Below are positions 34-64,000 of a DNA stretch of 64,000 nt, piece by piece. A program made the position numbers and the translations under genes. Location of the stretch: assembly GCA_050084515.1 (NCBI GenBank), contig CM114271.1, positions 45,508,001 through 45,572,000 of the forward strand. Direction: 5' to 3'. The stretch comes from Blasia pusilla. Taxonomy: Eukaryota. A model generated the notes under the pieces. It saw nothing but the letters and a program-made list of their open reading frames with translations. It was not told where the DNA came from and searched no databases. Position 1 is the stretch's first letter, and each line of letters starts with the position of its first letter.

Positions 34-2981
34 ATGGATGACCAAACTACGATAGCCAAAGTAAGTAGATCTGGAAAAATGTTCAAATTAGATGTTTCTA
101 TGCCAGAGATTCAAACATCCATGTATGGTCAAATCGGCCAACAAGTCACGGATCTAAATGTGTGGTATAAGAGAATTGGACATATGAATTTTCAAAGCTT
201 ACAGAGTCTTTCATCATATAATATAGAAATATGACTTCCAAAATTAGCAAGTCCCTACGTTAGAGATATGTCCTGCTTGCCAATTTGGAAAACAAGTAAG
301 ATTTCTTTTTCCAAAGCAAGGTAGAAGAGCATCCAAGATATTGGAGTTGATCTACAATAATGTGTGGACAACATCACAACATAGCCTTAGTGATTGCGAG
401 TACTTTATTTCATTTATTGATGACTTATCTATGTATATATGGGTATACTTTCTGAAAGCCAAGTTAGAGGTATTCTCAATGTTCCAAACATTCAGAGTTC
501 TAGTAGAGAAGCAGATTAGAGAATACATTCTGAAATTGCGTTTTGATGGAGGAGGAGATAATCTTTCAACAGAGTTTGATGACTATTTATGTCAGAATGA
601 CATCCAAGATGAAGTAACTTACCGTTACACTCCACAAAAAAATGGAGTGGTTGAGAGGAAGAATCAACATATTGCTGAAGTGACACGAGCTATGCTAAAT
701 GAGAAAAACATGCCTAAGATGTATTGGGCAAAGGCTGTAGTGTGTGCAGTCTTCTTAATCAACCGAACTCCAACAATAGGAGTTCATGATAAGACTCCAT
801 TCGAAGACATATTGCTGAAGCGATACGAGCTATGCTAAATGAGAAAAACATGCCTAAGGTGTATTGGGCAAAGGCTGTAGCGTGTGCAATCTTCTTAATC
901 AACCGAACTCCAACAGTAGGAGTTCATGATAAGACTCCATTCAAAGTCTTCATAGGAAATAAACCTGATTTTTCCTTCTTGAAAGTATTTGGTTGTATTT
1001 GTTATGCTCATGTTCTTTCTGAAAGACTACAGAAATTAGACCCCAAATCTGAAAGATGTATATTCATTGGCTACGTTGATGGAACTAAGGGGTATAAGTG
1101 CTACATTCTATCCTCTAGGCACCTTATTATTAGTCGCGTTGTTGTCTTTTATGAGCTAAAGTCATTGTATGCTCTATCTGAGCCTATTTCATCTCTAAAC
1201 TCATTTGTTGAGGGGAGAATATGAATATAAACCAGTAGACATTGCCTTCAAATTTCCCAAATATTAGTGTAGGATTTAGTCTGTTGACACTAGTCAGAGC
1301 TCGAGCCAGGTGTTAGAGGCATCTACCCTGAACAACAATTTTGTAGATCAAGTAGAGTTACACATCATGTTCATAAATTTATAAATGAAGGTTTCCTTGC
1401 AACACATCATGCATATATGATGACTACGCTTCAAGAACAAGAGCCGAGATGTTTTGAAGAAGCTGCAAGTAAAGTCGAATGGATTGAAGCTATGGAGGAA
1501 GAGCTTACTGTATTAAAAATCAACAAATATGGGAGGTGGTTGATATACCTTCCGGTAAGGAAGCTACTTGTTGTAAATGGGTTTACAAAATCAACACAAT
1601 CAAGATGGTACAATTAATAGATACAACACGAGATTGGTGACTAAGGGCTATACACAACAATATGATATTGATTATCAGGAAATATTTAGCCCTCTTGCAA
1701 AGATGGCGACTATGAGAACAATGGTTGCAATTGCAATAAGTAAGAAGTGGAGATTACATCACATGGACGTCAAGAATACCTTCTTGAATGGAGATCTATA
1801 CGAGGAGGTATATATGACTCAACCATCTAGATATGAGCATCCCAAGTTTCATTTCGCGTATGCAGGTTGAAGAAAGCTCTATATAGGCTAAAATAAGCTC
1901 AAAGAGCTTGGTATGACAAGATTACATACGTCCTACAAGAGCTGGGTTTTAGGATATGTGATTCTGACTCCTTGTTATATGTCTTGATAGGACAAGATTA
2001 TACGGTTATCATTGTGTTGTATGTTGATGATCTTTTGATTATTGGGAGTATTGAAGAAATGGTACAACAAGTCAAGCTGAAGTTACAAGCAGAATTTGAT
2101 AAGAAGGATTTGGGAGAACTCAAGTATTTCCTTGGTGTTGAATTTATCAAGGTTGGAGAGAGCATGTGGTTACTACAACAACAATATGCTCTTCATATGC
2201 TTTCAAAATATGATATGACGGCTTGTAAGCCAATCTCTATACCGTTGGATCAGAGTGTGAAGCTAAGAGTGGATGAAGAAGAGTTGCTTGCAGATTCTAA
2301 TATGTACAAGCGTATGGTTGGAAGTTTGATCTATCTAACTATAACCAAGCCAGATTTGAGCTATGTTGTTGGCATAGTGAGCCAATTTATGCAAGCACAT
2401 CGAAAAACTTATCTTGATGTTGTGAGGAGGATTATGCGCTATGTGAAATTCTCTGTTCAATTCGGACTTCAATTTGAACCTTCTCCGAATTTTCAATTAC
2501 TAGGATTCACAGATGTTGATTGGGCAGGAAGCGTGTCTGATCGACACTCTACATCTGATTATTCATTTACTTTGGGAAGCTCATCTATAAGTTGGGCTTC
2601 AAAGAAGCAACCTACAATTGCTTTATCTTCAATAGAGGTTTAGTACAGAGGAGCAACCAATGTAGTATGTGAGACGGTGTGACATGCTACATTGGTGTTA
2701 GTAACTTAGGACCTAGTGTAATATATGCAGACAATATTAGTAACATCAAGCTTGTTAAGAACGTTTTGTTTCATGCTCGTACAAAGCATGTTGAGGTGCA
2801 CTATCATTTTATCATAGAGAAAGTGTTTTCCGGAGAAATTAATCTTGTGTATATAGATACAGATCAACAAATTGCTGACATCTTTACAAAGGCATTATCT
2901 AGAAATAAGTTTGAGATGTTTAAAAATGATATATTTGTTAAAGATATCGATATGAGATTGAGGGGGAGTATTGAAGATTGA
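34..2981 (+). mobile_element. Degenerate Ty1/copia LTR retrotransposon pol (GAG-pre-integrase, integrase, RT, RNase H); 5' part lies outside the window
   Basis: Domains in copia order: WYKRIGHMN (pre-integrase); FIDD..YIWVYFLK, LRFDGGG and YTPQKNGVVERKN (integrase); HHMDVKNTFLNG and LYVDDLLI (RT); DVDWAG, YADN, HARTKHVEVHYHF and QIADIFTKAL (RNase H). Many stops and frameshifts. Confidence 0.97.
667..946 (+). repeat. Tandem duplication, 2 x 140 bp, inside the copia integrase
   Basis: 667-806 and 807-946 align without gaps with 7 mismatches, all transitions; duplicates the peptide MLNEKNMPKxYWAKAV. Confidence 0.95.
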
Positions 2982-3840: not shown

Positions 3841-6800
3841 GTAATGTGTCTACTTGTCTAAGATCCATCTACATATGAATCCTAACATCTCTACATATGA
3901 ACGACTGGACAACTCCAATGTAAAGTTGAATATGAATTGTAAGCTATGATGAAATCTGCAATCAAGCGTGCTTTATCCAAACAACCCTATTTATGAATTA
4001 GATACACGATGTTGCAATAGCAAGAGAAATTGTACACAAGGACTCCCAAAATGTGTATGATTTTCCATATCAATCAATCCTAGCCCATTCTTCAAGAGAG
4101 AACCCAAGCTCAATACATGCACGCTACACTATATTATGGATCCCAACACGAGTCTGATCCTAAAGGAAGATTAGCTCCAAATGAGCTTCATTCGACGTAT
4201 GCCCCTCTGGGCACCTCCATGGGTGACTTATCACACATGTCACCTCCCTCCTAGCAACTCACTACAAACCTGTAATATACAAATACTAACTCCCTAACAA
4301 CTACATTTGTGGTTCCCTCATGAGACCAACTACCAACTAACCCACGACTTTCGTGCGCCTACTCCCCTCAAACATCAATCTCTAATGTTACGGAAGCGTA
4401 CTTTCAGTAGGACACGCTCTCATCACCGATCTGCATCCAAACACATTCATATTAGTCTAGTCTGGGTCAACCGGCCTTCCAGCCCATCGAGTCCTCAACC
4501 CGACATATGATCAAGCTCAATCTTCCCTCATTCCTAGCTTCCCAACATGGGCAAGTCTTCGGGGACTTGGGACAGACTTTCAGGTTAGTCCACACACCTA
4601 AAATAATATTTGCGTGTCTAGCGGTCCCAACTTTCCGATGGACCTCGCATGAGCTTCCATCCAAGACCCAAAAATATGAGTCGCGAATTGGAATCCTCTG
4701 AAATCCACTCTAGTGGACTTGGTTTGGATTTCGAATCCCAATGCCAAAACTCCCAATCCATTCTGTGCCCTTGAGTCATCCCACGACGCCCAAAGTGGGG
4801 TTTGAGTCACAAGCACCCTTGGAGACCTTCCCCCTTGATAGGACTTTTGGGAAACTCCACCCTCCCCTACGTTTGGGGAAAAGGCATCCGAGCCCTTCTT
4901 TTTGGCCCTCAACCCGACTCCTCATAAAGTATTTTTTGGAAAATATCTCAGTCTCTGCTTGAGCGTTTGCCAAGATCTCTAGTGCGTTGGAACCAGATCT
5001 ATGTAATCTTTCCGACGCTACCTTATTTGTATCAAACACATCTTAGGGCTAAAAGTTATGGTAAAAAATACAGTTGAAGACCCCAAACGCTAGTCACGTC
5101 TCAAGTTCGGTTCTCATCCCTTGGCCACGTCTCGTCCAAGACTCAAATCCTCTCAAGTCTGGGTTTGCATTTCCTTCTGATTTCCTAGTCGCAACCATAA
5201 ACCATTTGTTTTGTATTAGATTGCACTTTATACGATTTTGAAGCCAAGAGATATGACCTCGGATTTGGACACATAGGTATTTCCAAAAATTTTCTAGGCA
5301 TAAGCATGCCAACCTAGTCGATAGGTTGGTAGAATACTATATGGAATGTAATATTACATTGGAGGGCATCCCAAAAATAATCCTATCATGATTATAGTGA
5401 AGATATGCGATAGGAAATATATGGTTAAGAAGTCTACATTGGACCTTAAGGTGGGACTCAAAGTCTTTGCACTCAAGAGGTTAGTCATGGATGATTATTG
5501 GGATGTGGATGACTCTCCCATTTTATTCTCCTATATTGGTGTATTATATCTCCTTTGTAGATGGAGGGAGATTGTGAAGAGAGCTCATTCTTGCTTGGAA
5601 TATCTACTGTCTCTCTATGCCTTGAGTGTCAAGGATATCCGTCAATCTCAATATATTGATTGTAATGATCTGAGAACATTGAGGTACATCTGTTCTCACT
5701 TGATATATTGACAATATATGATGTGGGAACATTAAGCTACATACGTACCTGATTGATGTGTATGGCTAGAAGAGTTGGAGGATAAGTTTTTGAGTAGACT
5801 GTTGGCTCCTTGGGTACTCACTCAAGGGTAGAGAAGAGTCCTATGTGCATGACTCCCAACTTCACCGATGTTGACATGATACAAAACCTACTTTTGTAGA
5901 TAATTGCAAACCTATGTTACAAATCATTAAATTTTCCCTTGCATTATTGGAAATTTTCTTCTTACTCTCAATCAATGAATTGCATTCACACTATTTCAAT
6001 CCTCCAACCTTTGTGCACAATCTTCCAATGGCAACTTTGTTGTCACATTTATTCCCAAATTGAATATTTTAGTCATTCATATGACTCCTTGAACCTCTAA
6101 GACCATTTCCTTCAACCTTATTGTTATGGCCACTAACACCTTTCAACAACCTCCTTCTTGATTTTGCCAAAGGAAAAAAGAGAGAAAATAAATTCTTATA
6201 GATTCTTCAAATCCCACATAATGTCATTCATATCATGGTGTAGTCTCTACAGCACCCTGCTTATGCTTTGACTCATCACCCATGTCAAAGAGACCAAGTG
6301 TTGAAATGACTTGGGAAAAACAAAAGCCACACGCCTTTGAAGAAAAAAAATATTATCGTAAGTGCAAGTTCCTCATGAGTCCCTACACTCGCAAAATAGA
6401 CTTGCAAAAAAATGCATTAAAACAAATTCGGACTCGAAATAGACTCACAAAAGCTTTTCGAGTAACTTGTAGCTTTAAGGACTTGCAAATAAGGAATACT
6501 CAAAAACCAATTTCCGAAAAATTCCCACGCGCAAAGATTAGTGTAATCGCCTAAGGTCGCACAATGTGCTTGTGAGATCCTCGAACGATATTAACTCACA
6601 AAAGTACTTGAAGTGGACTTGCAAAGTAGTAGTTAATGCTAAGAAAGGGCTCGCAAAACAACTTTGGGCACCCTTCATACTCCTAGAAGTGAGGATGTAT
6701 GCAATTTTGTAAATTCCTCGTGGTTGATAGGCCCTCCAAGAGGTAGGTAGAGTGTGATTAAACAAGGATGTAGAGATCGTAGAGTAGTATGTGTAAGTCA

Positions 6801-18777: not shown

Positions 18778-21700
18778 TTATTTCATAGATTTGGTTCCTG
18801 TCTCCCAGGCTGCTTTCTGCTCGGCAGCGTCTACTTTCTCAGTCCATCGTTTCGCCTTCTTCTCAAAGGAAGCTTCACTGCAGCCATACACACTGTTGAG
18901 TGACAACGATTTGAAGAGCTCCCCAAGCCGCTGATGCCGAGGAATGATGCGGTTGGCCAAGCTGTAGCTGAAGTACTGAGGAAAAGGAATCACCTCTTTC
19001 CTGGAGCGTTTCATGACGTCCACAAGGTACCCATACTTGGGTGCTAGCACGGTCACCACACTAAAGCCCAGTAATGAAGGCAAACTCCTCACCATGTCTG
19101 CAACCTCAGCTCTGCCAACCATACCATTGTGTGTAGGTAAGAGGTATTGTGGACTTAATCACAAAGGACCTTCTGGCAGGTTTTAAGTGAGGAGTTGGAG
19201 GACATGGGCATAAACTAAAGAGAAAAGAATCAGCTGACTTCTTGCCCAAGAGGACCATGGAGCTACGAGAGATATCAAAAGGTAACAACCAGTACTAATC
19301 ACCAAGCACTCAGGAAATCAGTGCGGAATTAATCCGAAAAGAACTCCTTGATCATAACTATTCCTATTATCACTCCTACCTTGTGAAACCAAGCTTGAGA
19401 AGGTACGTGACAGTTGGTTTAAGATTCTTCTCCACACTCAAGGTGAGCAATTGTGGGTGCCTGGTAACCAATCTTGCAAACAAAAACACAAAAATCTTAA
19501 GAGATACAGAAACATTTAACATCAGTGAGAGTGTAGACACCACTATGGCGCCTGGTAGATGGTCATTTACAGTGAGAAGCAAGTGGAGGATGGACTGTAC
19601 CTAAGAACCTTATTCACCCTTCTCAACAGATGATTTTGCCCCTATCGGCCAAGAAAACAGACTACTCACTAAGTAGCACCTGTCGTTTCCTTATCACATG
19701 AGGAAACATATAGTTCTCATTAAGTAGTGGCTGTTGTAGAGTTGCAAACATTGAACATGTGCAGATGTGCCTAGTGCTAGACTGAGGAAACAGACTCCAC
19801 TCACTAAGTAGAGCTTCTCCTTGTGAATGTAGACTCACTAAGGAAACAGAGAAAGATTGGAAACTGTTTAGGAGAAGGAAAAGGCAGGTAGCCACATACT
19901 TTGCAATCTCTGCCTGCTTAATTTGAATGCTTTTGAGAAACTTTATGTTTGGCTTGAGCTTTGTCTCAACACTGTAGCCTAGAATCATGGGTTTCAGCTT
20001 CAAAACCTGACAATGGAAGTGAGGAAAGTTCAATTAGTGATTTCGCTTCAAGTGGAACCAAGAAGATTGTGAAGTATTTGCAAGCCAAATGTCAATAATC
20101 TGGTTCACCTGGTTCTATTCCAATGCAACAATTTGAAGATTTCAAAGACTTGTGTAGATGTAAAGTGGGGTAATTTAGACTGCCCACACAGAGAACCCCA
20201 AATGTCCTTGAAATCAGTCATCCAACATCAACCCTATGATAACCTTTCTACAAACTCAAAGAAGCTTTACACCTAACAACTTTATTTCAAAAGACTATGA
20301 CTGTAAAACTAATGCATGTTAGCTCATACGAACTTTCTGATGGTTATCGTAGTGACTTACCTTTAGAAGCGAAGCTCCATTGATTCCAATGCTATCAAGA
20401 AACTTGACGGTGGGTTCCATATTGTCTCCAACACTCAGGCCCATAAGTTGTGGGGCATTATAGATAACCTTCATATCAGACACCGTCATCAATAGCCATC
20501 CTAGAGAGCCTCCGGCTTCTTGAAAATCAAAAAATTCCGATCACTTCTTTGATTTAATGTCCTGACATTCTAGATCACTCATCCTTCCAGTGTCATTAAA
20601 CCAAACATCTACCAAACCAGGTGCGCTGACTATCAATATCACTATTTATACCATTATTGGAGAGTGCCCCTTCATTTTGCAAATTCTTCTCTTCTTGACA
20701 CTTGGCACATTCAGCCAATAGGATTGCTTGGCTTCTAAGCCAATAGGATTGCTCAAAATTGAGAGTTAATTATGGGAGGTAATTCAAACCTGTGCATCGA
20801 ACATGCTTACACTAGTTAACTAAACATATGGACAAACCAACCATAAGATTGTGTCAAATTGATCCTATGGGTCATGAAAAGATTATTAAACCTTAAAAGT
20901 TTAATCTGTGTGAGATTATGTAAGTTCAGTTTCAACTACCACATGAAAATGAGAAACTCAAGTCAGAATTGATACCCCTAACATCAGATCGACTTTAAAA
21001 AACACAAACATCTCACCTTACCGAGATCTTTGTGGTCCAGACCCACGTTGAGGAGGAATTCTATTTTGAGCTGAAAGTTGTGTCGATTTTTCAACAATTG
21101 AGGATGCCGCCTGAATAGCTTGCCCATGAGACCAGGTTCGACCCCCAACCTTTCAAGGTGCAGAACGGTCGGTCGAAAGTCCTGGTCATGAATAAAATCA
21201 ACCACAGACGCTCAGAATTCTGACCCGTGTGAACAACCATGCTGTTACTCAGCAACGACACTACTGTAGTAATTCCAAACTGACACTTACGTCTCTTGCG
21301 CCCAACAATCCAGCCAACTAGCACCCTGACTATGGACAACTTCATGGCCGCCAGACTCACCTCAAGAAAAATGTAAAACTTTCTCTCTTCTTTGACACTT
21401 ACTTTTTGGTAACACTAGCTTAATATCACTGCTGTCCAACACAGCATCAAACCAGACCGCTGCAAACTGTTACTTCAACACTCCACTACATGTTCAGGGG
21501 AGTTCGTCACTGCCCAGTGCCTAGCCCCTTCAGTTTTAGGACGCACTGCATATCACAGCCAGCCCAAAACAGCTCACTTGCCTGTTCAATATCGTAGCAG
21601 AACAGCTGAGGAAACGACATCAGAATCTTGTCGATGTCATCCGCACTTGCATTCAAGCTCTTGAGATAGTTCCCAACCGGCATCAGTTCCTTCTCCACAT

Positions 21701-23078
21701 CACTATCCAGCAACAACGGTCTTCGGATCAGGACTGTACCTATGTGCTCTTTCTGTACCCCTAGATCTACCAGGTATTTAACAAGGGGATCCAGCTTGAT
21801 CTCAGCGTCTTCTGTAAGGAGGATGGGATATCTTACCACCAGCTTCTTTACATCCTTCAGTTGCACGCCCAAGCTTTCCAACACTTTCACAGATGTATGC
21901 AGCTGGCTTTGAGCGTCCCTACCGAGAATTTGCGGAAAGTCTATTACCATCTTGCCAATATCTTTGTGGGCTAGTCCAAGGCTAACTAGGTAGTCAACAT
22001 TCTGTGCCAAAGTGTCGCACTGGTTGGATAGAAGCTGTGGCCATCTCACCAATATTCCAGGAAGATGGATGTACTTAACGCCCAGACTCCTCAAGAACTC
22101 CACTTTCGCCATCACCATATCAATTCCTCGCTCCACAAAAGGCAGCACAATGGGAATATTCAGCGCCTTCATTCCGATAACCTGGAAATAGTGCACAAGC
22201 CTTGCCAGCCCTCTCCTTTCCGCACATACTGACACTCTGGAGGCCAACACACTGATCCGTTCACTTTGAAAGGGCTCCTCGGCATTTGCATTCGCTTCCG
22301 GCTCCGAGCTTTTGGAAATCTCCCAAAGCTTGCGCATATTTCTTCCTCGCTCCCGATCTGCAAACGAAGCCTCGATATTATGAGTCGGGTCCTCCCCGTC
22401 ATTACGAACACTTGCCTCACTGCTTCCCACGCCAGGCCATCTCCCATCGAAGCCCTGCAAAAATTCCACATCCTCGAAGACCTTGTCTTTAGCCTCCACA
22501 ATCAAATCATCGATGAGATCTCCCGCGTGCCTGACAAACTCAAACGCGTACCCCGAAGTCACCCCTTTCTGCTCTAAGAGATCCAGGAGTCCATTCATGG
22601 CCTCAATTCTCTCCTGACGAGAGAATATCGTTCTGACCTCCAGAGCCTGTGCCTCCTTCTCCAGCAGCGTCGGCAGCTGCCTCCCAACATTCGTGTTGGA
22701 CAGGACTGAAGGCGGGGACACGATGAGATCCTGTATATCGTCAAATTCATGTTTCTCAGTGGCAACCTTCCTGCTCTGCTTCGTCGGCAGACCGTCTCCT
22801 CCTCCCACATACGCACAGCACGAGAATCCAGAACCTGCCCCCTGCCTCCTCCTCTCTTGCAGACTCCAACGCGAGCGAACCCCTTGATCTCCTCCCCACG
22901 CCGCTCCAGCTCCAGCTCTGAAGAAGCGAATTCCCAGCGCTGAGCGCCCACAACAGCCCCGCAGAAACGCTCGTCGTCTCTCGGGCGGCGAAGCTGCGCG
23001 CAGCTCGAGGTGCAAAGAAGCGGCGAGCGAGGCGACGCGAGCGCGAGCTTCAATACTGGAATTGCACACAACTGACAT
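18778..23078 (-). CDS. mTERF: mTERF-family protein, probably organelle-targeted, 6 exons
   Basis: Exons 23078-21582, 21181-21017, 20468-20361, 20006-19900, 19472-19380, 19111-18778. Repeated mTERF motifs (RWPQLL, DFPQILG, RYPILL, RHPQLL, LKPTVTYL..LG) and C-terminal FPQYFSYSLANRIIPRH. R/S/A-rich N-terminus resembles a transit peptide. Start taken at the first in-frame ATG (MSVVC). Confidence 0.92.
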
Positions 23079-23191
23079 GTAAACCGCACGCGCGCGCACG
23101 AAACTCCCCGACTTTTGTTCGCCTACATCAGCTGCGCCGCGAGCCCCACTGCTGCTCTTCAATGATCTTCGCTACGCATCCTCCACATCTC

Positions 23192-30106: not shown

Positions 30107-33100
30107 ATGCAGACGCCGGTGATCGCCGATCGGCAGCAGCAGGTGTGGCCGCTGCAGGCCCATCCGCCGCAGCGCCAGCTGGGGCAAGTTCAGGTGGTGC
30201 CGCCGGACGCATTTGTGGCGAGTATGCATGTGCAACCATCGGAGCCGTTGCAGCTTGGTTTCATGTGTGGCAGCCTCCCTGTGCCGACAGTCAGCCCGCC
30301 GGACATCACCAGCACCAGCAATTGTACCACAGAAGCCGCTCTCATTCCTGCCATCGGCCTTCAGACCCAACGGTGCGCTTCTGGTCCTGCAATTCCTGCA
30401 CTCGGGTTCTTGCCGGCTGGCTGCTATCCTTGGGTGTGACAATTTCTAGGATGTCTGCAATGACTCTTTTGTTGGTGACGATGTTGCAGGGCAGCGGCTC
30501 CGCGGTACCGAGTTCTGCCGACCGAGACAGATCTCAACATGCCGCCTTCAGATAGCTTTCAGGCAGAGCCGAATTTTCCTGTGGCCGCCTCTCATGAAGC
30601 AGCGGGTGGGTTACCTCTTAGAAACTTTAAACCTCAGTGTCCTCCTACATTTTCCAGCAAGCAAGACTCGTCATTTCAATTTTTCATGAGATTCACGTAC
30701 GTTTGCTCTCCTACTGCGTGGCTCTGCGTCACGGTCCCTAGTTGATGCATTTGAGTGTGCCAAGATACATTTCCCCGCCCCAGTTATTGGGGCAATTAGC
30801 TCATTTTCTGTGTTGATCCTGCTGCACGCGAGTGGGCTCTGCCCTCACAGCCTGTGACAGGGTGGCTATTTTGTTTGAAATTGCTCGTAGACAACTTGAA
30901 AAATTCCGTTCTGCTCAGTTATGTCATCCACCACCACTGTTAACTAGCAACAGTCTCTATGACCTTATTAGTATAGCTGCGAGAACCCTATGCGTTTATT
31001 AGTATAGCTGCAAGAACCCTATTATATGAAAACTGTCAAAGGCGGTAATTCCTGGAAGCCACCTCTGATGGCTACGGAGCCCATCTTCAACCTTGGAACT
31101 GATGGCAAACTCCATAAGAGATGCCTCTCTTTGCACTCGGAAATCAATGCAGATACATGTGGGATATGTTCAGTCATGCTGTCAAATGTGATGCTCACTT
31201 TTTGATTTATGATCTGTGTGGGCTCGTTTGTCAGGATTGTGCAAAGCCTGGGGTGGGAATTATCTGAGTCAACCTCTAGCAAGGAAGTGCGAAGCTCTTG
31301 CAGTCAACGCTCTTGCTGGTTATGGTGATGAGATTGATGTGGTAGCCCCGGTAGATATATTGAAACAAATATTCAAAACTCCATATTCCAAAGCCCGGAT
31401 ATCGGTTGCAGTCCATCGGATTGGTCGTACACTCATACTGAACAGTGGGTATGGTTTCCCCCCGTCATTCTTCTGAGCTTTGCGGGTGTTTCTTGGTTTT
31501 GGATGGCGGGGTAAAAAGAAAACTTAAATATGCATTTGAGATGTTCAAGTTGTGGAATGGTTGGACTTACCTCAATTTTAACATTGCAGGCCAGATGAAT
31601 GGAGGGACGACAGATCAGGAGCGAAAATAGCTAGGCAAAAGAAAAGTAACGCCAAGGCAATGGAAAGAAGCCTGTTCTCAAAATTTGTTCAGCATTCAAT
31701 GAATGGAGATTCTTTTGATTCGGCATTCTCTGCACATGCGGATTCAAAAAATTCTTCAAGTGCCCCTGGTTTCGAAGAGTTAGAGGACCATGAACTTCGT
31801 TGCCAGTCAAGGTCCAGGATGGCCACACAGCGGAAGGGTAAACAAAGGGGTTCATTGGGTCATTGCAGGCGCAGTAGATGTGGAGGTGGACTAGATACCT
31901 TACAGCAGAAGTCCCGATTTGTGGGTGAGCAGCAGAGGGAGACTGAATTTGTCCCAAATGACTGTCCAACAGAGGGCCCACAGAGGCCTCCTGAGGGATT
32001 TTTAAGAGTTCTTTTTTGGCAATTTCAAAATTTGCGAATGCTTTTGGGAAGTGACCTGCTTTTATTCAGCAATGAAAAGCACGCTGCTGTGAGCTTGCAT
32101 CTCCTAGAAATTGAGCGTCAGGTAGGATTTTGGACCCATCCCGAGTATTTTCTGTGTCTTTTCTTCTCCATGGTGAGCTTTGGATTTATTGGGTGATGCA
32201 TCTGTATGGTTCCTCCAAGTAAGAAACTGTTTCGAGCTTTGACTCATCTTGGGAATGTTGGCAGGTGACACCTGTGATGTGGTTAGATGCTTGGCTTGAC
32301 AATGTGATGGCCAGTATACCAGAGCTTGCTGTTTGTTATCATCGTGATGGTGTTGTCCAAGGTTATGAGCTCTTGAAGACAGACGACATATTCCTGGTGA
32401 AGGGGCTCGCTGAGGATGGCACGGCATTTTTTCAACCACATGTTGTTCAGCAGAATGCCTCCAATGTCTTAAGGTTCTTGCGAGACAACTGCAAGGAAGA
32501 TCCTGGGACTTACTGGGTATAAATATATCCTCTGTGTCCTTGACAATTTTATCACTTCTCATTTCAGCTGCAGGAAACAGCGAGAGCTAGTGACAACCGA
32601 GTTGATTCCTTTCCAACTCTCACTTACCTCCTTGTCATTCTTGAGTTGTGAACTACATTTGGAGGCTCCCAGGGCTCATTGCTAGTCCAAAGTCACCAAC
32701 TGAGGTTCTGTCTGCCTGTGTGATACTGACATTATGAATGGATGTCTGCAGCTCCTGAAGAATGCTGGAGAAGACTTGATGCAGCTTTTTGATCTTTCCG
32801 TGATCTCTAAGACGTATCCTTCTTGTGGGGAGAAGAAAGATAAGGATGGTGGCACACTACCTTCTACAAGAAACTGCTGCAATGGGCACTTCTCTCTGCC
32901 TTTGGCTATGCTTCTATATCGCTTAACTCACCGACTTTCACGATCTAAGGTATTGGAGGAATGCCCAACCGGTGCACTTCTCTGGTGAAATTCAAATCTG
33001 TCTTCATAATTGTCATGTGTGAGTTTGTGATACTGAGGCTGATGGATTTCTTTCCTCTTGAACAGGACCCAGCGGACAGGCGCAAATGTGCAAAGCTATT

Positions 33101-36100
33101 TGGCAAATGTCTGGAGTTTATGGATGAACAAGAGCATTATGTAAGGATAAGCTTATATCAAGCATGCAACTTTTTACTTCTGAGCTAAATTCTTTTTCAT
33201 TGGGAAAGAACTACAAGCTTCCCATATCTGTGGTTCTTTCTGCCTTTTCATGGACGTACAATAGATATGGACGGGAAACCACATATGTGATCTGATGGAT
33301 GTCAAATTGGAGTGATTATTTGAAGACATGATTTTTTTTCCAGCTAATGAATTCATTTCTCACGGTCTACAGATTATCCGTGCCTCAGCCCATGAGCATG
33401 TTGCCAGGCTTATTCTTTCTACTTATGAAGAAACTGGAGCATCTTTGAAGCCATTGTTACTGAAGTCTAGTATGACTAGTGGTGCAGTTGGAGGGAAAAC
33501 AAACCAGGGTGTACTTGAGCTATCCTGCTCTGTCCAAGAACCTACTGGAGATGAGGTCACTGTCTCGAGTCATGACGTACTGGAAGTTTGTAATGGAGAA
33601 GACTTAAGAAGCCATGATACCAAAATGTCTGACACATCTGTTGATGGAGAGGCACTTTCACTTGATGGGTTGACAGCAATGTCTCATCCTGAAGAAATGT
33701 CCATTACTTCGGAAGATTTAAGTACTCAAAAATTGCACGGATCACTGGTTGCCTGCGCGACAATGCCAAGCAAAAGCTGCACAGAAGCCCAGGTACCGAT
33801 GACTGTGGAAGAAACTCCCATTCCTGCCAGAGAGCCACAAAATGAACTTGATTTCCTTTCTGCAGCCTACTCTTTACCAAAGTCGCTGTGTGCTCTGACA
33901 GATCCTGTATCTGCCCGTCTTGAAGCAGTACACCATATTTCTCAGGCAATTAAAGCCCTGAGATGGCAAAGGCAGCTACAAGGTGTGGAAGAACATCCAC
34001 TGAAATCTGGTGGCACTTTTACTGAGCTGCCAAGTATTCAACAATTGCCTCTCTGTATATGTGGAGAGGTAGATTGTGTTGCAATTTGCGACTTCAAGGA
34101 AATTGGAAAAGGTGCCCAGATGGATCAAAAGCTTTGGCGCCTTATGTGGCTTCTTGGTGATGCCTATCTTACGCTTGGGCACGCATATAAGGATGAGGGG
34201 CAACTTAGCAGAGCTTTAAAAGCGACAGAGTTAGCTTGTATGGTATGTGGGTCGATGCCTCAAGTGAATGATAACCATACTCTCAGCCCCCAGAGTCACA
34301 AAGAAGGTGATGGTCTGTGGGATGGTTCCAGTGCGTCTCAGAAGGAGTCTCCAGATGTTGGTGGCGAGCTTTTGAGGCCATCCTCTTGTGCCAAATATTT
34401 CCAAGTAAATGGTGGTGATACTCCCAGCACAAGTCGTCCTTCAGTGCCCAAAGCTCGGCATTATCAAGAAGGTTCTTTCTGGGGGCAATTGTGGACGTTT
34501 GTGGGAGACATCTATGTGGAGATTCAACGCTCCCTTGGTGAAGGTGATGTTACATCTCTTGAACAGGGTTCCCAATTTGAGGAACTGACCATGACACAGG
34601 AAGTAATGAAAGAGGTTAAGCGCCTGAAGAAGAAAATTGGGCATCTAAGAGGAAGTTGCGGAATATGTAGTCTGACGAGTTGTAGTTGCCAGAGTGACAG
34701 GGCAAGTAGTGGAGATAGTGCCAGTAGCTGTAGCAGTAGCACCTTTAACACCAAGTATGGGCGCAAGCAAAGCAAGAAGTCAAAGTCAAATTGTAGAAGC
34801 GGAATGAATTTGGGTGGAGATGTATGGAATGATTTGACAGAGACAGCTGCTGAAAATGAAAGGAGACCGGAGAAAAAATCAATCTCAAAATCTAAGGAGA
34901 AGTTGAGTTCTCAGAGAGTGTATGAAGTCTCTGAAGACCTTGACATAACTCCCCCGACTCCTCAAATCTCTAAAGAAGTTCCAGAAACTGCTAGCAAGGC
35001 TCCCAGTGACATCTTCACATACTTGAGGAGACCTGTGATGGTGGATTGGGAAGCAAATCTTTCAGCTTCGGTGGACTGCTACTCTGCTGCAATAGGTTCC
35101 TTTTCGGGGGCTTCTGATGGTTCTGTAGACCTGGAACTCACACAGCGGAAGAAAGGGTGGGCTTGTAATGAACTTGGGCGCAAGAGGCTAGCTCTTGGGC
35201 AGGTTAAGTCAGCAGAAGTTTCTTTTGCGAATGCTATAGAAGCTTTTAGGGAGGTGAAAGACTTGACAAACATTGTCCTCGTGCATTGCAATCTTGGTCA
35301 TGGTCGAAGAGCAGCTGCAGAGGCTATGGCAGCTAAGCTAGCAGTTTGGGAAAACACTGATTTTGTTACCCCATTCCTGAAGACCATTGCTGAGGCCAAG
35401 TTTTTATACGGAGAAGCATTGAAGTATTACGGGAAGGCCAGGGGGGAGCTTGTTGGTGGAGGAGAGGAATTGGAGCGTGCCATGGGTGGGCTGTGGAATG
35501 AAGTGCATACGCAGTTGGCACATACATATCTGAGACTTGGCATGCTTCTGAGTAGAGAAGATAGATTTGTCTATACATGTCGTAAGACTAGCGAGAGGGG
35601 ACAGCTTGGGAATGAGGAGTCTCAAAACAAAAAATCTGGGATTAAGGATGCTACTTCTACGAAAGATGCTATTACAAAGGCTCTTGTCATTTATGAATCT
35701 TTGGGAAAGTACCGGGCCCAAGAGGCTGCATTTGCCCAGTACCAACTTGCATGCCATCACAGGGACTCTTTTATATGCATTGCCACTCAGGTGGATACGT
35801 TTGGTTTGAAGAAAGTTGATACATCAAGCTTTCATAAAGCAAAACTGCATGTTTCTCTTGCAGAGCTTTACTGGCAAAAAGCTCTAGACTTTTACCAACC
35901 AGAAACACATGCTGAAATGTTCCTGGATATCTTGATGGAAAGGTCCGCTCTGTGTTCAGTCATGGCAAGTTCATTTCATCAAAATCAGGTTAGTACTGCT
36001 AGATCTTGTTTCCTCTTGAAAGAAATATCTGTTTTGACCCTGGTGGTCCCTGTTTGACAGGGTAGTCATGATGTGAGTTTTAACTGCAGTGAGTTGCACT

Positions 36101-57636: not shown

Positions 57637-58060
57637 TTTTTTTACCTTCTATTTATAGCAACCCCCTAATATTTGGTTTCTAGTATAGATAGATTTGCTT
57701 GATGACGTTCACTTCCTCAAGCCAAGTGCGCGAGAGAAGGTGAAAAACTTAGACGTAAGGTCCATATTTGAGTGATAGAAAGTACCATTGTCAAAGTAGC
57801 AGTTCATATTTGCCCCATAAGTAGTTTCTAGGAATGAGGAGTAATTACTTAATTATAACGCCTGTGAGGTGTTGTGAATTTGTTTGTTGTTTCCAACTTT
57901 CCTTGTGTTGGCCCTAATATGATTGAGTGAAAACTCAGAGGAAGGATTTGGAAAAGAATGGGGAGTACAGATAGATGCTCGTTTTTTTTACCTTCTATTT
58001 ATAGCAACCCCCTAATATTTGGTTTCTAGTATAGATAGATTTGCGTGATGCCGTTCACTT
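57637..58060. repeat. Direct duplication of ~78 bp (57637-57714 and ~57982-58060) containing a Helitron-like 5' end on the minus strand
   Basis: TTTTTTACCTTCTATTTATAGCAACCCCCTAATATTTGGTTTCTAGTATAGATAGATTTGC is present twice. A candidate CTAG 3' end lies at about 57492. Confidence 0.8.
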
Positions 58061-58069
58061 TGTCACGGC

Positions 58070-60037
58070 TGTTAGGATAGATCGGTGGGATCTAGCAGAG
58101 CGTCTTCACGAGTAGAGGAGGACAAGCCCAGGAGGTCGAGGATGACTTGCTGAGGCCCTAGGAAACCTGAGAGAGTAGGTTTCCCCTTCGTTTCGGCTCA
58201 TTTGGAGCCATATAGAGAAAAACTTGCTATTTCGAGGAAGTTTCCATGTTGGTGATAATTGACTTTCCACTTTGGGAAGTGGCCCTTGACCCGCTACAGC
58301 AGGTCAAAAGCCAAGGAGGTGACCTACGAGTATAGGTTACCATTGAGAGGGCTTGGGAGAGGGAAGGGAGTATACCTCCAAGAGAGAGAGATAGAGATCA
58401 TTCTCTCTTTGTTGAACCTCTTGGCATGAGGCGGCGGAGCTATGGTCCCTTGCCTTGTGAGTGTAACCCAAGCCTCTCATTAGGAGAGTGGGTTTGGTTT
58501 GACATGAGAGAGAGTGCACACCTTTGACAGCTATGGTATGAGATGGTGTAGAGAGAGATTGGATCTTACTTTACAAAGAGAGAATGAGAGAGTGAGAGAG
58601 CTTCATGGGGGAGCTCGCTGGTCACTCCCTGTTTTTGGAGGTTGGGGACCATGTTCCCCGTTCAACGGCTCATAGGAGTGCTCACCGAAGCAAGGGCTGC
58701 TTTGATTGTTCTTTGCATTTGCCAATTTTTCGTGTGGAAGAGTGACGTGCAGAAGCGTTGCCCAATTTCTGATAGGGATTGATTATGGGGTTGGGTTGTC
58801 ACATGCCGGTGCTCTTGGGAGCACCATGTAGCTTGTTGATTTGTATTTTTACAGGATTTACATTTTCTTTGGGAGAAATCAGCGTGGAAGCACTGCCAAA
58901 TTTTGTGTAGGAGAAAGAGACATTGGGCCTTACAACAGTCCTTGTCAGTTTTTACTGGAATGTTCGATTCTAAATATTTTTTGACGCTGTCATAGATTGT
59001 GAAGTTGTGCAAGCTGTGCAACAAAAAATGCGCAATTTGGAGTTGCAAACAAAAAGTTATGGTCAATCTTGAAAAATTGCCATTGCTAGGCAATTTTTAG
59101 GGTTAAATTGTTCAAACCCTGAACCAGCCGCCACTCCGGCGGCTGCCGTCGCTATCATGGTAACCGTCAACGATCCTCCATCGACGGTCAACCTTCAACG
59201 TTAGTGTCAGTGGTCAACCGTCACCGTCCGTTGTCCACCCTTTGGTTGCCATTGCCGTCTTTACGGAGTGGAGGGTCTTCACGACGTTCGTTGATTCTTT
59301 GACTTGCGTCGCCACCACGTACTTTGTTTTGGTCGCTATCATCATCGCAGTTTCGTCATCAACCAGTGATGGCAGATGACCTATGGTTATGGTGTTTGAG
59401 TTGTGATTTCATGCTGCTATGTTGTGATTGGTAGTCGCTCGACGATGATCGAGTACCATGCCGTGACGCCCGTAGCCGCAACGCGCCACCGATTGCCGCG
59501 TCGTGCCGCTCATGGCTGCACCGCACCGTCTGGATCACGGAGCCGCATCATCATTGTGGAGCAGAGTGTGGGTTTATTTTTCATTGAGGAGGGTATGCCA
59601 CCGAGTGCCGCATCCCACCATCGAGGGCCGTGCCATTCGTAGCCATTTCGTGCCGCTTGCAACGCCGCACCGTTCCGCTGGAATCGCACTGTCTATCGAG
59701 GAGTTTTGAGCAGCGTCAGTACGGGAGGAGTATGACTTGCTGATTGGAGGAGTTGTCTCCACGACCGAGTTGGGGTTGAGATTTGCAGTTGCTGAGGAGT
59801 GACATCAACATGTATTCAGGTTATCCATTTGGTCCTTTACCCTACACGTGTGAGGGATTGTGGGATTTGGGTAGTTTATTTGGGGATATTGGGTGTGTGG
59901 ATGCTGAGAGCATCATGTATGTATGTGGTTTAGGGGACATAGACCTATGTGGGATGTCTTGAGTTGAGGGTAGGTTGTCGATGAGATAATAGCCTGGTCA
60001 ATTTGCCGCACCCCGCCGCTTGTTGCCGCACGTTACA
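58070..60037 (+). repeat. Putative 5' LTR (~2 kb)
   Basis: Begins TGTTAG where homology to the upstream duplicated flank stops; candidate end GTTACA about 100 bp before the gag ATG; shares segments with dispersed repeats elsewhere in the window. The second LTR is not in the window. Confidence 0.55.
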
Positions 60038-60133: not shown

Positions 60134-61400
60134 ATGAGGGTCATCACAGCGTCCATTCGGGACTTTGAGAGACGAGGTGGTGAACTCGAGAGTAGCTCTA
60201 GAGGTTTTACGCGGAGTGGCGCGAGGTTCCGAGGGTCTCCACGTGAGGGACCACCTCGACCTCCTTCTGTGTCATCGTCAGACGAGGGGGAGGGTGTAGA
60301 GGAGTTTATGAGCACATCGCCACACATTGTGAGTGGTCCTACCAGTTGGGCATACGAGATGGACGACCGGGGTAGAGGACCGCATAGCTTTTCAGGTGTA
60401 GTAGGCACGATTTCATAGCGGAGTTTAGGAGTTGGTGTGACTCACAGCGGGCTAGGAACTCTAGAGAGTTCAACTCGTTTACAGCATGGAACGGTATGTT
60501 CCAGCATTTAGAGAGGGCGCCCATGGACAATTACCATGAGTTCTCCCATAGATATGCCCACGAGATTGAAGCATGCCGACTCTACTACAACCCACACTAT
60601 GTGTTATGGACGGAGCCGTTCCGAGATGAGGAGGAGGAATCAAGAGAGGCTACTTCATCTTCCACTAGTGACGTTTTAGGAGGGGTCACTTGCATGGGAG
60701 CAGTTGCACCGTCTAGTCGAGTTCGTCCCAGGTTCAACCATGTGGTTGAGTTCTTTGTTGAGTTGAGGGCGAGCTACCAGGGGATACGGACGGAGAATTT
60801 GCAGAGCCTCCACGAATTCCAAAGACGCTCGGGTGAGAGTTTGCGTGAGGCTTAGACTCGCTTGCGCCGGTTGATCAACGTCACTCAAGGGGTGACAAAG
60901 GCTCAGGCTATCCAGTCATGGTACGCGATGCTGGATCGGACCCTGCGGGTGCGGGAGGGGGTGCTTCTTATGAACACCTCCCCTACATTTAGAGATGTTT
61001 TTAGGACCGCCAAGAACATTGAGCGCAACATGGCGGAGGAGAGCTTAGCCACCATGGGTTTTAGGCGAGAGTAGTCACGATTGTCTGCACCACCTGTCCA
61101 GCAACTTGGACTCCGAGATAGGTCGACTGTGGCACCACAAGCTCAGGGAAGATACCGGGAGGGTGTGCCATAGAGACCTACGCCTTCATATGCGGCTTAG
61201 CAGCAACCGCCTACTATCACTTGTTGTGCATGTGGTGGAGCCCATCATCAACGCGGGATTGCACTCGTCAGGATCTTGGACGTGTGCCTCAGCATGGAGG
61301 AGGAGATGGTGCTGCACCAGGAGGTTATCAGTGTGACTATTGTCACAGGTATGGTCATACACGCGCCAAACGTTTCAGTTTACATCTTAAGTTACGTCCA
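60134..61400 (+). pseudogene. gag: Retrotransposon gag with two CCHC zinc knuckles (frameshifted)
   Basis: FFVELRASYQG...LHEFQRRSGESLREA*TRLRRLI (gag major-homology-like); CCACGGAHHQR(D)C at about 61222 and CDYCHRYGHTRAK(R) at about 61332. Confidence 0.8.
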
Positions 61401-62337
61401 GACTGAGGGCCAGAGAGGGCACTAGAGCGAATAGTCGGTCCGGGTGGGCTAGAGATCGTGCACTAGGTGGTCCTGTTGGGGGACGAGGAGCTGGAGTTGC
61501 CCGACATGGTGGTGGAGCTGCCCGTGGAGGAGGTAGAGTCCTACCATCTAGACGCGTCGAGGGAGATGTCGGGCGTGTGGCTAGGATGGCTGCTCACATA
61601 CATCAGCTACAGGAGCAGATTGCCGCTATGGCATTGACATTACCCGATGCCGGATCCGTGGCATCGACATCATATGGAGTAGCCAGAGATATGGAGGATC
61701 CTGGTTGGATATGTGGGATTGCCCAGATGGAGGCAGCCGTAGTTGTGATGCGTGGAGCAACCGCAGAGTTGGATCCACAGCGAGGGGAACCGAGGAAACA
61801 GACTAGGCTTCCTCAGTATTTCACGTTGTCCGAGACGATGACGACCCCATGATGGGTCCTAATCAGAGTTCTTGGAGAGTTGGTGATGTTGTTGGTATGC
61901 AGGCACGGAGGGCGATGGGAGAAGCGAGTGCGACGATTCCTATTGTTGATGCTCAGGAGGGGCATGTGTCGAACATGTTGCTAGGACTGGCCACCATTGT
62001 GTATCGCGCTCCTTTATTTTTTGCTTCCGATGTTATGACGTTGGGGGGTACGCCCGCCGAGGCTTTTCGGCTGGCCTCCAGGCTATGTGAGCGTGGAGTT
62101 GGAGTTCTTGCATCACGTTCAAAGATGATTGCAGAGGAGGTGATGGACCTGCCCTTGGAGCGGATGCTCGAGCCATCCACGTCAGATTCATGGCAGGCTG
62201 CGGCTGCTAGGATGGCAGAGATGCCCGCTGAACCCGCGAAAGAGTGTGCCATGGCTTCTCCTGGTGTTGTGTTGCTAGATAACCAAGGAGAGGTCTTCCA
62301 GTTGGTGAGTCCCGGAGGTAGAGCTTTTAGTCCGTAG

Positions 62338-62703
62338 CGCGTCTTGTTGGATTCAGAAGCGCAACCCCTAATGTTGGGGAAAGCGTCATTCAGAGGATTG
62401 GGCTTGACGAGAGCCGATATGGAGCGTTGTCCATTCCGGATACAAACATCCTTGGGTGGAGTAAGTACCACACAATATATCACCCGAAAGGAGGTCGTGA
62501 TGAGGATTCGCTCGGGACATCCTACAGATGAGTCCGTGGTGCGAGCCAAGGCGATAGTGACTGATGAAGAGACTCACGACGTCTTGGTTGATGGAGCAGT
62601 GTTATACTCGATGGGGTTTGCCCTGGATTACTGGGAGGAGTCAGCGTCCGACAGACCAGGATGGCACTCAGGTGATGGGCGTCTTAGCTCATTACCCGTT
62701 TGA
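62338..62703 (+). pseudogene. Retroviral-type aspartic protease
   Basis: RVLLDSEAQPLMLG (D-S-G-A motif with G>E), IQTSLGG flap-like region, and HDVLVDGAVL (DVLIG-like). Confidence 0.8.
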
Positions 62704-63060: not shown

Positions 63061-64000
63061 GGTATTCGAGTGTTAGATCTATTTGGAGGGATTAGCACCT
63101 GGTTAGCTGCTGTTTTGCAGGCAGGAGTGCGAGTGCAGCACTACCTGTATGTGGAGAGTGATGATGTTGCAAGGTGCGTCTCACTACGATATGTGGCGCA
63201 GTTACACGTACGTTTTCCCGACTTCTTGTCTGCGTCCGCGGTACAGGGGTACCAGAGTTCCCTATCGAGGGATATTTTGTTGCTGGGGCATAGGACTTAG
63301 AGCGGGTAGTGACCATTGATTTGGTCATTGTCGGTTGGCCATGTCAAGGCCAATCGAGTGTTGGACGAGGCAACGGGTTGGCTGACACTCGGTCCAGGTT
63401 GTTTTGGGAGATGTTGAGGGTCTTACGACACTTGCAGGAGCACCAAACTTGTTCTCCAGCCTACATTTTGGAGAACGTGCCGATCTTAGGAGACTCTAGG
63501 TCACGGGTGGTGACGACTACTCATCAAGTGCATGCCTGGATCGGCCCAACAATGTTCTTGGATGCGGCGAGTGTAGGGTCTAGAGCCCATCGCCCGCGTC
63601 TATGATGGACCAACTTGGTGCCCCATGCGGTGTTACCGAGGGCGTATGCAAGAGTGGAGCACCCCTTCCATTTGTTAGTGGATTCCATTCTGGATCCAAG
63701 TCGTCGATCACAGGCAGTGAGGCACGATGATCAACCACCATTGACTGTGGTCAACAGGGTAGGCAGGCCGCGGGCAACCTTGCCCACATTTGTGAGTTTT
63801 CCCGCTTCTTATGCATACAAGGAGGCCAGTCCTGGCTTGGTTTAGGATGACCAGGTTCAGCGGTTGGTGGAGCCCAACACCAACGAGAGAGAGCGAGCAA
63901 TGGGATTTCCCACAAGAGTGAGGGCAGTACCGTAAGTGTCAGAGGCATCACGACGCCATGTCTTGGATCAGGCGATGGACTTGAACTGCTTGACATGGAT
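63061..64000 (+). pseudogene. C5 cytosine DNA methyltransferase domain (DNMT3-like) within the retroelement polyprotein
   Basis: Motif I IRVLDLFGGIS, II YLYVESD, III RDI, IV DLVIVGWPCQ (63333-63347), V SRLFWE, VI YILENV (63471-63479), VIII AHRPRL*WTN, IX ERERAMGFP, X RRHVLDQAMD. One frameshift near 63292 and three stops. Confidence 0.93.

Follow-up and report, generated by a model that had tools for sequence, protein, structure and literature searches.

Cytosine-5 (C5) DNA methyltransferases (DNMTs) borne by retrotransposons have been in print since 2018. The closest described system is KnitGypsy-Dnmt3 of Klebsormidium nitens, a low-copy Ty3/Gypsy element described as acquired within the K. 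nitens lineage (PMC5890265; this and the other papers are cited for the sections consulted). Later papers refer to the Gypsy finding as one of 'streptophytes' (PMC12344493; bioRxiv 10.64898/2026.05.21.726589). SymbioDIRS-Dnmt3 elements and EpiLTRs are likewise retrotransposons with C5 methyltransferases (PMC5890265; bioRxiv 10.64898/2026.05.21.726589). They differ in being tyrosine-recombinase elements, or in carrying a DNMT4-related domain with DAM and a chromodomain. SymbioDIRS domains perform de novo CG methylation in yeast (PMC5890265). Here, we compare these systems with a locus of the bryophyte Blasia pusilla. The stretch analysed, hereafter the window, comprises 64,000 nucleotides (assembly GCA_050084515.1, contig CM114271.1, positions 45,508,001 to 45,572,000 of the forward strand). 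At its right end lies a DNMT3-like C5 cytosine methyltransferase domain (63064..64000, plus strand). This domain is probably the DNA methyltransferase module of a Ty3/Gypsy Pol polyprotein from an old green-plant lineage of the KnitGypsy-Dnmt3 kind, whose active members would have methylated their own complementary DNA (cDNA) in cis and inserted by way of a circle. The kind of element is already known; its range, its abundance, and its end anatomy are new.

The methyltransferase domain and its element

The domain displays linear motifs I to X on the plus strand. Motif I (IRVLDLFGGIS) starts at 63064, and some 92 codons further on follows motif IV (DLVIVGWPCQ), with its proline at 63339 and its cysteine at 63342 (PC, 63339-63344). 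ENV starts at 63471, the two arginines of RxR in AHRPRL stand at 63591 and 63597, and ERERAMGFP with SRRHVLDQAM (motifs IX-X) lies close to the window end. A preliminary description of this DNA, made from the letters alone, had quoted these motifs in this order with PC, ENV, and RxR retained, and all of them can be read in the window copy. Two of its readings stand only in part: the bracketed residue of AHRPRL(W)WTN is a stop codon, and SRRHVL(D)QAM, although present, has aspartate where glycine is usual at the motif X position (63966; glycine in 58 of 63 genome copies). Family PF00145 matches at 63294-63602 (E 8.6e-12), and its hallmarks (motif I, PC of motif IV, ENV of motif VI, RxR of motif VIII, motif X, and a fold that binds S-adenosylmethionine, SAM) are all present. 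The circular permutation of DRM enzymes, which places motifs VI-X ahead of I-V, is absent. Domain search, alignment, and a structure model found no chromodomain within the catalytic domain, as CMT enzymes have, nor does one separate motifs I and IV. The same description had excluded both classes, correctly on both counts.

The window copy itself is a dead, decayed pseudogene, with one frameshift near 63290 and four in-frame stops, one at the frameshift and the others at 63603, 63843, and 63933. It is part of an element that begins well to the left. An identical 4-bp target site duplication (TSD) flanks this element, with its left copy at 58057..58060 and its right copy after G000:C1:45587006, 15 kb beyond the window end. 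Repeat A1 (58061..58573, plus strand) forms the 5' end, and a second A belongs to a B-A-B block at the 3' end outside the window; A1 and A2 of this copy mismatch at 31 of 511 aligned sites. A broken gag-like region with CCHC knuckles (about 60146..61400, plus strand) is followed by a broken aspartic protease-like region with an LLDS motif (62260..62640, plus strand). For the former, the sole Pfam match is a weak zinc-finger one in a different copy of the element; the latter has none in the window copy. Reverse transcriptase (RT), RNase H, integrase, PHD, and B-A-B extend past the window end up to G000:C1:45587006. This part of the element has received two insertions of its own. A 9.8-kb foreign stretch (L031:6572 to L032:6354) stands in place of about 390 bp of RT, and its two open reading frames gave no Pfam matches. 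A 1.3-kb insertion (L032:7417-8692) is flanked by an 8-bp duplication.

Sister copies, in which the Pfam domains of the element were detected, display the order Gag (CCHC knuckles), protease, DNMT, RT, RNase H, integrase (H2C2/rve), and a C-terminal PHD. The DNMT sits between protease and RT in Pol, and Asp_protease_2 immediately precedes it in homologs P0027 and P0192. Repeat A (about 514 bp) precedes the coding region and a B (128 bp)-A-B block follows it, so that the whole reads A-coding-B-A-B; the first bases are TG and the last CA. With KnitGypsy-Dnmt3 the element shares a non-rearranged Dnmt3-like domain in a Gypsy Pol frame with RT, RNase H, and DDE integrase, DIRS-like repeats, key residues, and a Ka/Ks below 0.2 (PMC5890265). 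It differs in occupying a bryophyte genome, probably in thousands of copies, and in the two DNMT positions found in Pol across its relatives. Named relatives come from Marchantia, Calypogeia, Riccia, and Sphagnum and from three green algae. The consulted text of PMC5890265, figures and main supplement apart, does not mention PHD, self-priming, a polypurine tract, or joint anatomy. A Gypsy element bearing a PHD is known in Chlamydomonas (bioRxiv 10.1101/2022.06.16.496473).

A scan of the 390-Mb, 26-contig assembly returned 6138 first-look candidates for the domain. All 40 that were scored are full length at 91-100% identity, and the domain is therefore not a chance match. Other element parts gave 4511-5347 first-look candidates, which are not copy numbers; together, the scan suggests thousands of element copies. 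Fourteen elements were fetched for the TSD count, and three lacking one end were excluded. Among the remaining 11, the 4-bp duplication is exact in seven, has one mismatch in three, and has two mismatches in one. A second family in the same genome, at about 72% DNA identity, has the same layout with exact duplications in three of three elements, and metagenome relatives share this repeat layout. The divergent family (L295, L297) is nearer to the metagenome relatives (L094, L141, L149, L165), with about 80% DNA identity across RT-integrase and a common self-primer, than to the main family (72%). This would be accounted for by lineages that have long coexisted, or by horizontal transfer from one bryophyte to another. 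No tyrosine recombinase was found in the element, whereas an rve and H2C2 integrase and a 4-bp TSD are present; membership in the DIRS/PAT tyrosine-recombinase class is ruled out by the DDE integrase and the duplications. The chromodomain and two full terminal long terminal repeats (LTRs) of Tcn1/Tf1 chromoviruses are also lacking, with a PHD after the integrase and split repeats instead.

The family appears to be transcribed. Three raw RNA runs, chosen by species label and possibly from another organism, were mapped to 8.4 kb at an identity of at least 85%, which gave 4419-5062 reads per run. Only 17 per run are 99% alike, so these values are a family-wide sum. Depth over the DNMT is 39-81 on one strand versus 0.5-6 on the other, which is sense under the usual library convention. 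The B/A joint is crossed by 47-73 reads per run, and depth declines ahead of the A end.

Enzyme conservation, selection, and origin

Structural comparisons used an open-frame sister copy (L039), which deviates from the family over some six residues of one loop. By sequence, the solved structure closest to it is DNMT3A (E 1.4e-13); DNMT3C and DNMT3B come next, followed by DRM (1e-6) and HhaI (2e-4). A structure model (predicted local distance difference test, pLDDT, 93) again has DNMT3A as its best fold match, with template modelling (TM) scores of 0.74 and 0.82. Linear motif order and DNMT3A/B/C ranking above DRM2 and HhaI agree with the DNMT3-like assignment made earlier from the letters. ESM Atlas added nothing beyond generic C5-methylase clusters. 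The domain shares motif order, fold, and PC/ENV/RxR with the DNMT3A/B catalytic domain (PDB 6f57, 6brr). It differs from DNMT3A/B and from bryophyte DNMT3 (PMC6453930) by a structural-alignment identity of only 22-23%, by the lack of PWWP, ADD, and DUF3444, and by forming part of a polyprotein. Its target-recognition loop also differs, so specificity cannot be read off.

Conservation of the catalytic residues is pronounced. Across 42 homologs, down to 32% identity, the catalytic glutamate and the first arginine of RxR are invariant, and the cysteine, asparagine, and second arginine are kept in at least 90%. Selection was assessed in the genome, where 74 loci minus 11 short matches left 63 copies, from which one duplicate and three error-rich copies were then removed, with at most 14 used per subfamily. 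Only four of the 63 copies are free of stops or frameshifts. Nevertheless, proline, glutamate, and asparagine are found in 63 of 63, the catalytic cysteine in 60, and the two arginines in 52 and 53. The ratio of nonsynonymous to synonymous change (dN/dS) within subfamilies is 0.50-0.55, as expected from post-insertion decay. Changes within subfamilies are dominated by CG and CHG transitions, at 7-10% of sites versus 1.9% for CHH and 0.8% for A/T. Between subfamilies, net dN/dS of the DNMT amounts to 0.08, 0.12, and 0.13 for the three pairs and that of RT to 0.05-0.12; this likeness indicates that the domain was maintained and is no decayed passenger. These values fall within the purifying selection (Ka/Ks <0.2) of KnitGypsy-Dnmt3. 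For the protease, with a net dS of 0.025 and a third subfamily that failed to align, dN/dS carried no information. The preliminary description had likewise held that the domain was no decayed passenger. In active ancestors the domain is likely to have functioned as a SAM-dependent C5 enzyme that travelled in the particle together with RT and integrase and would have methylated the new cDNA of its own element in cis.

The nearest named proteins to the domain come from Calypogeia (72% identity) and Marchantia (69%); together with the host's DRM and DNMT3 genes they point to a bryophyte host. Further named homologs belong to Riccia, Sphagnum, Scenedesmus, and Cymbomonas, and most matches are unnamed. 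Identity to the domains of algal elements (Chromochloris, Scenedesmus, Cymbomonas) is 35-42%. In bryophyte proteins the DNMT lies between protease and RT, whereas in algal proteins it lies between RNase H and integrase (39 proteins with RT-RNase H-DNMT-integrase-PHD). Both domain orders nonetheless group together in an RT/RNase H tree, apart from four distant RTs, with support of 100/99. Thus, the capture is old, and the domain has moved within Pol at least once. Some algal-type members (P0046, P0216, P0227) also have a G-patch between DNMT and integrase.

Phylogenetic placement of the domain is less definite. A 46-row tree, which contained a single host DNMT3 and left out animal DNMT3, MET1, and CMT, recovered the 20 transposon rows, including Calypogeia, Marchantia, and Chromochloris, as a 100/100 clade. 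Its 20 prokaryotic rows formed a separate 100/99 clade, and its base is a polytomy. Approximately unbiased (AU) tests on 25 rows rejected none of the groupings of the transposon domains with host DNMT3 (p 0.35), prokaryotes (0.29), or DRM (0.45). The phylogeny thus does not favour a tie to eukaryotic DNMT3 over one to DRM or to prokaryotic DNMT3-like enzymes. The statement of the preliminary description that DNMT3 was lost in angiosperms agrees with PMC6453930.

Two other sources for the domain have to be weighed. One is capture from a bryophyte host DNMT3 of the DUF3444 type within land plants, with de novo specificity kept; the preliminary description had implied a capture from bryophyte DNMT3, which is not supported. 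The host genome does contain an exon-rich DNMT3-like gene, located by motif pattern (G000:C4:23.28-23.29 Mb, minus strand, L232), and a clade with it has the p-AU of 0.35 given above. However, the domain is only 26% identical to this gene as against 35-42% to algal transposon domains, and the transposon clade includes chlorophyte elements and predates land plants unless it moved sideways. This origin is very unlikely, and the domain was not taken recently from the DNMT3 of this host, since its clade spans liverworts and chlorophyte algae. A phage or virus DNMT3-like enzyme, in place of a eukaryotic DNMT3, is an unlikely though less remote source. Four phage enzymes score 70-77 bits with the domain versus 48 for host DNMT3, 500 phage records match, and grouping with prokaryotes is not rejected by the AU test. 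On the other hand, BLAST scores favour slowly evolving rows, the sampled prokaryotic rows form their clade without any transposon row, and Klebsormidium transposon domains were placed among Dnmt3-related sequences (PMC5890265). A search with a phage query gave no protein named as eukaryotic among the 120 listed, and a viral-contig scan with an algal protein gave no matches. 

Several observations were made on the methyltransferase genes of the host itself. The DNMT3-like gene has GGFPC at motif IV, its downstream piece resembles DUF3444, and one exon has DNMT3A as its best match. A search with DUF3444 (PF11926) matched only a DnaJ-DUF3444 gene and missed it. Two permuted DRM genes, close paralogs in opposite orientation, lie 66 kb apart (G000:C1:44.108 Mb and 44.174 Mb; L208, L209).

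Element ends and the proposed integration route

The end anatomy combines a polypurine tract at B1, a self-priming complement at A1, a ragged and non-inherited A2/B2 joint, and TG/CA ends that meet within U3. In 25 of 25 copies the polypurine tract, a G-run, lies directly against the beginning of B1, and relatives have it too. Inside A, a TATA-like box (58371) precedes by about 31 nt an inferred transcript start and self-primer (58400-58411; feature 58371..58411, plus strand). The 12 bases directly after A1 (58574..58585, plus strand) are the reverse complement of 58400-58411 and form a putative primer-binding site. The Tf1 primer is 11 nt long. The boundary between A1 and this site is kept in 30 of 30 5' ends. 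A different pair, AGTTCTTTGAG / CTCAAAGAACT, stands in place of ATTCTCTCTTTG / CAAAGAGAGAAT in the second family and in metagenome relatives, with pairing and spacing unchanged. For another copy, the centroid RNA fold pairs the two stretches, whereas the minimum-energy fold does not. A scan for a TATA box plus complement gave 13 matches versus 4 and 4 in controls, of which only four lie at element 5' ends, a signal that is weak alone. A primer-binding site that pairs with the inferred 5' end of the element itself, with no tRNA, is the arrangement of the Tf1/Sushi and Tcn1 chromoviruses (PMC6317226). The Blasia element differs from them in having a PHD for the chromodomain and an integrase attachment site away from the reverse-transcript ends.

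With the polypurine tract at B1 and the self-primer complement at A1, the ends of the reverse transcript would be the start of B and the end of A. Among 30 3' ends, the A2/B2 joint lacks one base in 12, is full in nine, shows larger deletions in three and an insertion in one, and is truncated in one. The remaining four stop after B1 without A2-B2 (A-coding-B forms). One metagenome relative has a 19-nt insert at this joint. Joint types are intermixed across the copy tree and are not inherited (six changes for seven rows, shuffled mean 6.6, on a poorly resolved tree). TG and CA termini face each other at B1/A2 as GACA-NN-TGTC, within U3. These observations make a route of the following kind likely. 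Element RNA would prime itself from its own 5' end, RT would make a linear B-A-coding-B-A cDNA, and the cDNA ends would be joined imprecisely. Integrase would then open the internal GACA-NN-TGTC palindrome in U3, yielding A-coding-B-A-B with a 4-bp duplication. A retroviral-type integrase able to cut palindromic junctions in circular cDNA is known from foamy virus (PMC1180852). There the cut falls at the end-to-end junction, whereas the element would be cut at a templated palindrome in U3, with the end joint staying inside the insert. The A-coding-B forms (4/30) and solo A-B forms (5/30) fit double cutting and later recombination equally. Five of 25 B1/A2 joints look garbled, and loci with garbled joints include L069, L071, L072, L084, L091, and L288. 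Such joints may have arisen during assembly or polishing, or may record genuine cutting and repair at the internal attachment site.

A bolder reading would extend this scheme to a green-plant-wide Gypsy lineage. Its attachment site would have moved from the cDNA ends into U3, insertion would occur only via an end-joined intermediate (2-LTR circle or concatemer), and the Pol-borne DNMT would mark the cDNA so that only one of two identical internal sites is cut. As a whole this is unlikely; its circle component taken singly is likely, and DNMT gating of site choice is speculation. If true, such gating would explain the one-sided A-coding-B-A-B product and the retention of the enzyme from prasinophytes to liverworts.

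A number of points weigh against the main explanation. The two internal GACA-NN-TGTC sites are identical, yet the mirror product expected under the circle model, A-B-A-coding-B, was seen at 0 of 43 5' ends. The tree of copies comes close to a star phylogeny (3 starred branches of 30), the RT tree has only four outgroup rows, and no transcript start was resolved in the three RNA runs. Homolog searches returned no sequence under the K. nitens name. The elements do not show a CpG depletion that would point to self-methylation: observed/expected ratios are 0.76 and 0.61 for the two families with a DNMT, compared with 0.79 in three other RT fragments and 0.54-0.57 in host DNA. CpG content is thus not reduced relative to other RT fragments or the host. 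The Klebsormidium domain gave no methylation in yeast, a result its authors called inconclusive (PMC5890265).

These last two results would suit a fold kept for DNA binding or as a structural part of the particle or intasome, and not for methyl transfer. The near-invariance of catalytic residues across homologs as distant as 32% identity, glutamate and first arginine above all, makes this quite unlikely. A different account of the ends invokes split repeats as in PAT/DIRS elements, with RNA reaching into B2 and the internal B-A joint templating both ends. It would explain the single orientation, and A-coding-B-A-B is also the layout of SymbioDIRS. However, the polypurine tract and self-primer set the ends at B-start and A-end, the A2/B2 joint is ragged and not inherited, and read depth drops ahead of the A end. 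A DDE integrase and TSDs are moreover present, and a tyrosine recombinase was not found. We consider the PAT/DIRS route improbable and prefer self-priming followed by imprecise end joining and internal cutting. An internal-attachment-site route was not found described for LTR retrotransposons, nor was any report of bryophyte or chlorophyte Gypsy-DNMT3 members, in a literature coverage that excluded bioRxiv supplements and subscription papers. The consulted sections of 10.1101/363937, 10.1101/2021.11.30.470311, and PMC11042837 held nothing decisive.

Wider relevance and neighbouring features

The lineage reaches genetically tractable bryophytes, and the role of a transposon DNMT thereby becomes testable. 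With candidate copies in the thousands and sense transcripts, the family could influence the host methylome. Such elements would probably escape surveys that require both LTRs to have TG/CA (PMC6317226). Many annotated Marchantia gene models, called 'hypothetical' or DNA methyltransferase (P0004, P0005, P0006, and others), are retrotransposon domains and can inflate DNMT gene counts.

On the small contigs C20 and C23 (L172, L173, L175), phage-type intronless C5 methyltransferases occur with a terminase large subunit; these genes probably derive from a prophage or from contamination of the assembly. Elsewhere in the window lie a Copia-type RT remnant (248-2640, plus strand), an mTERF gene (21510-23171, minus strand), and an EDRF1-like gene (31582-36054, plus strand).
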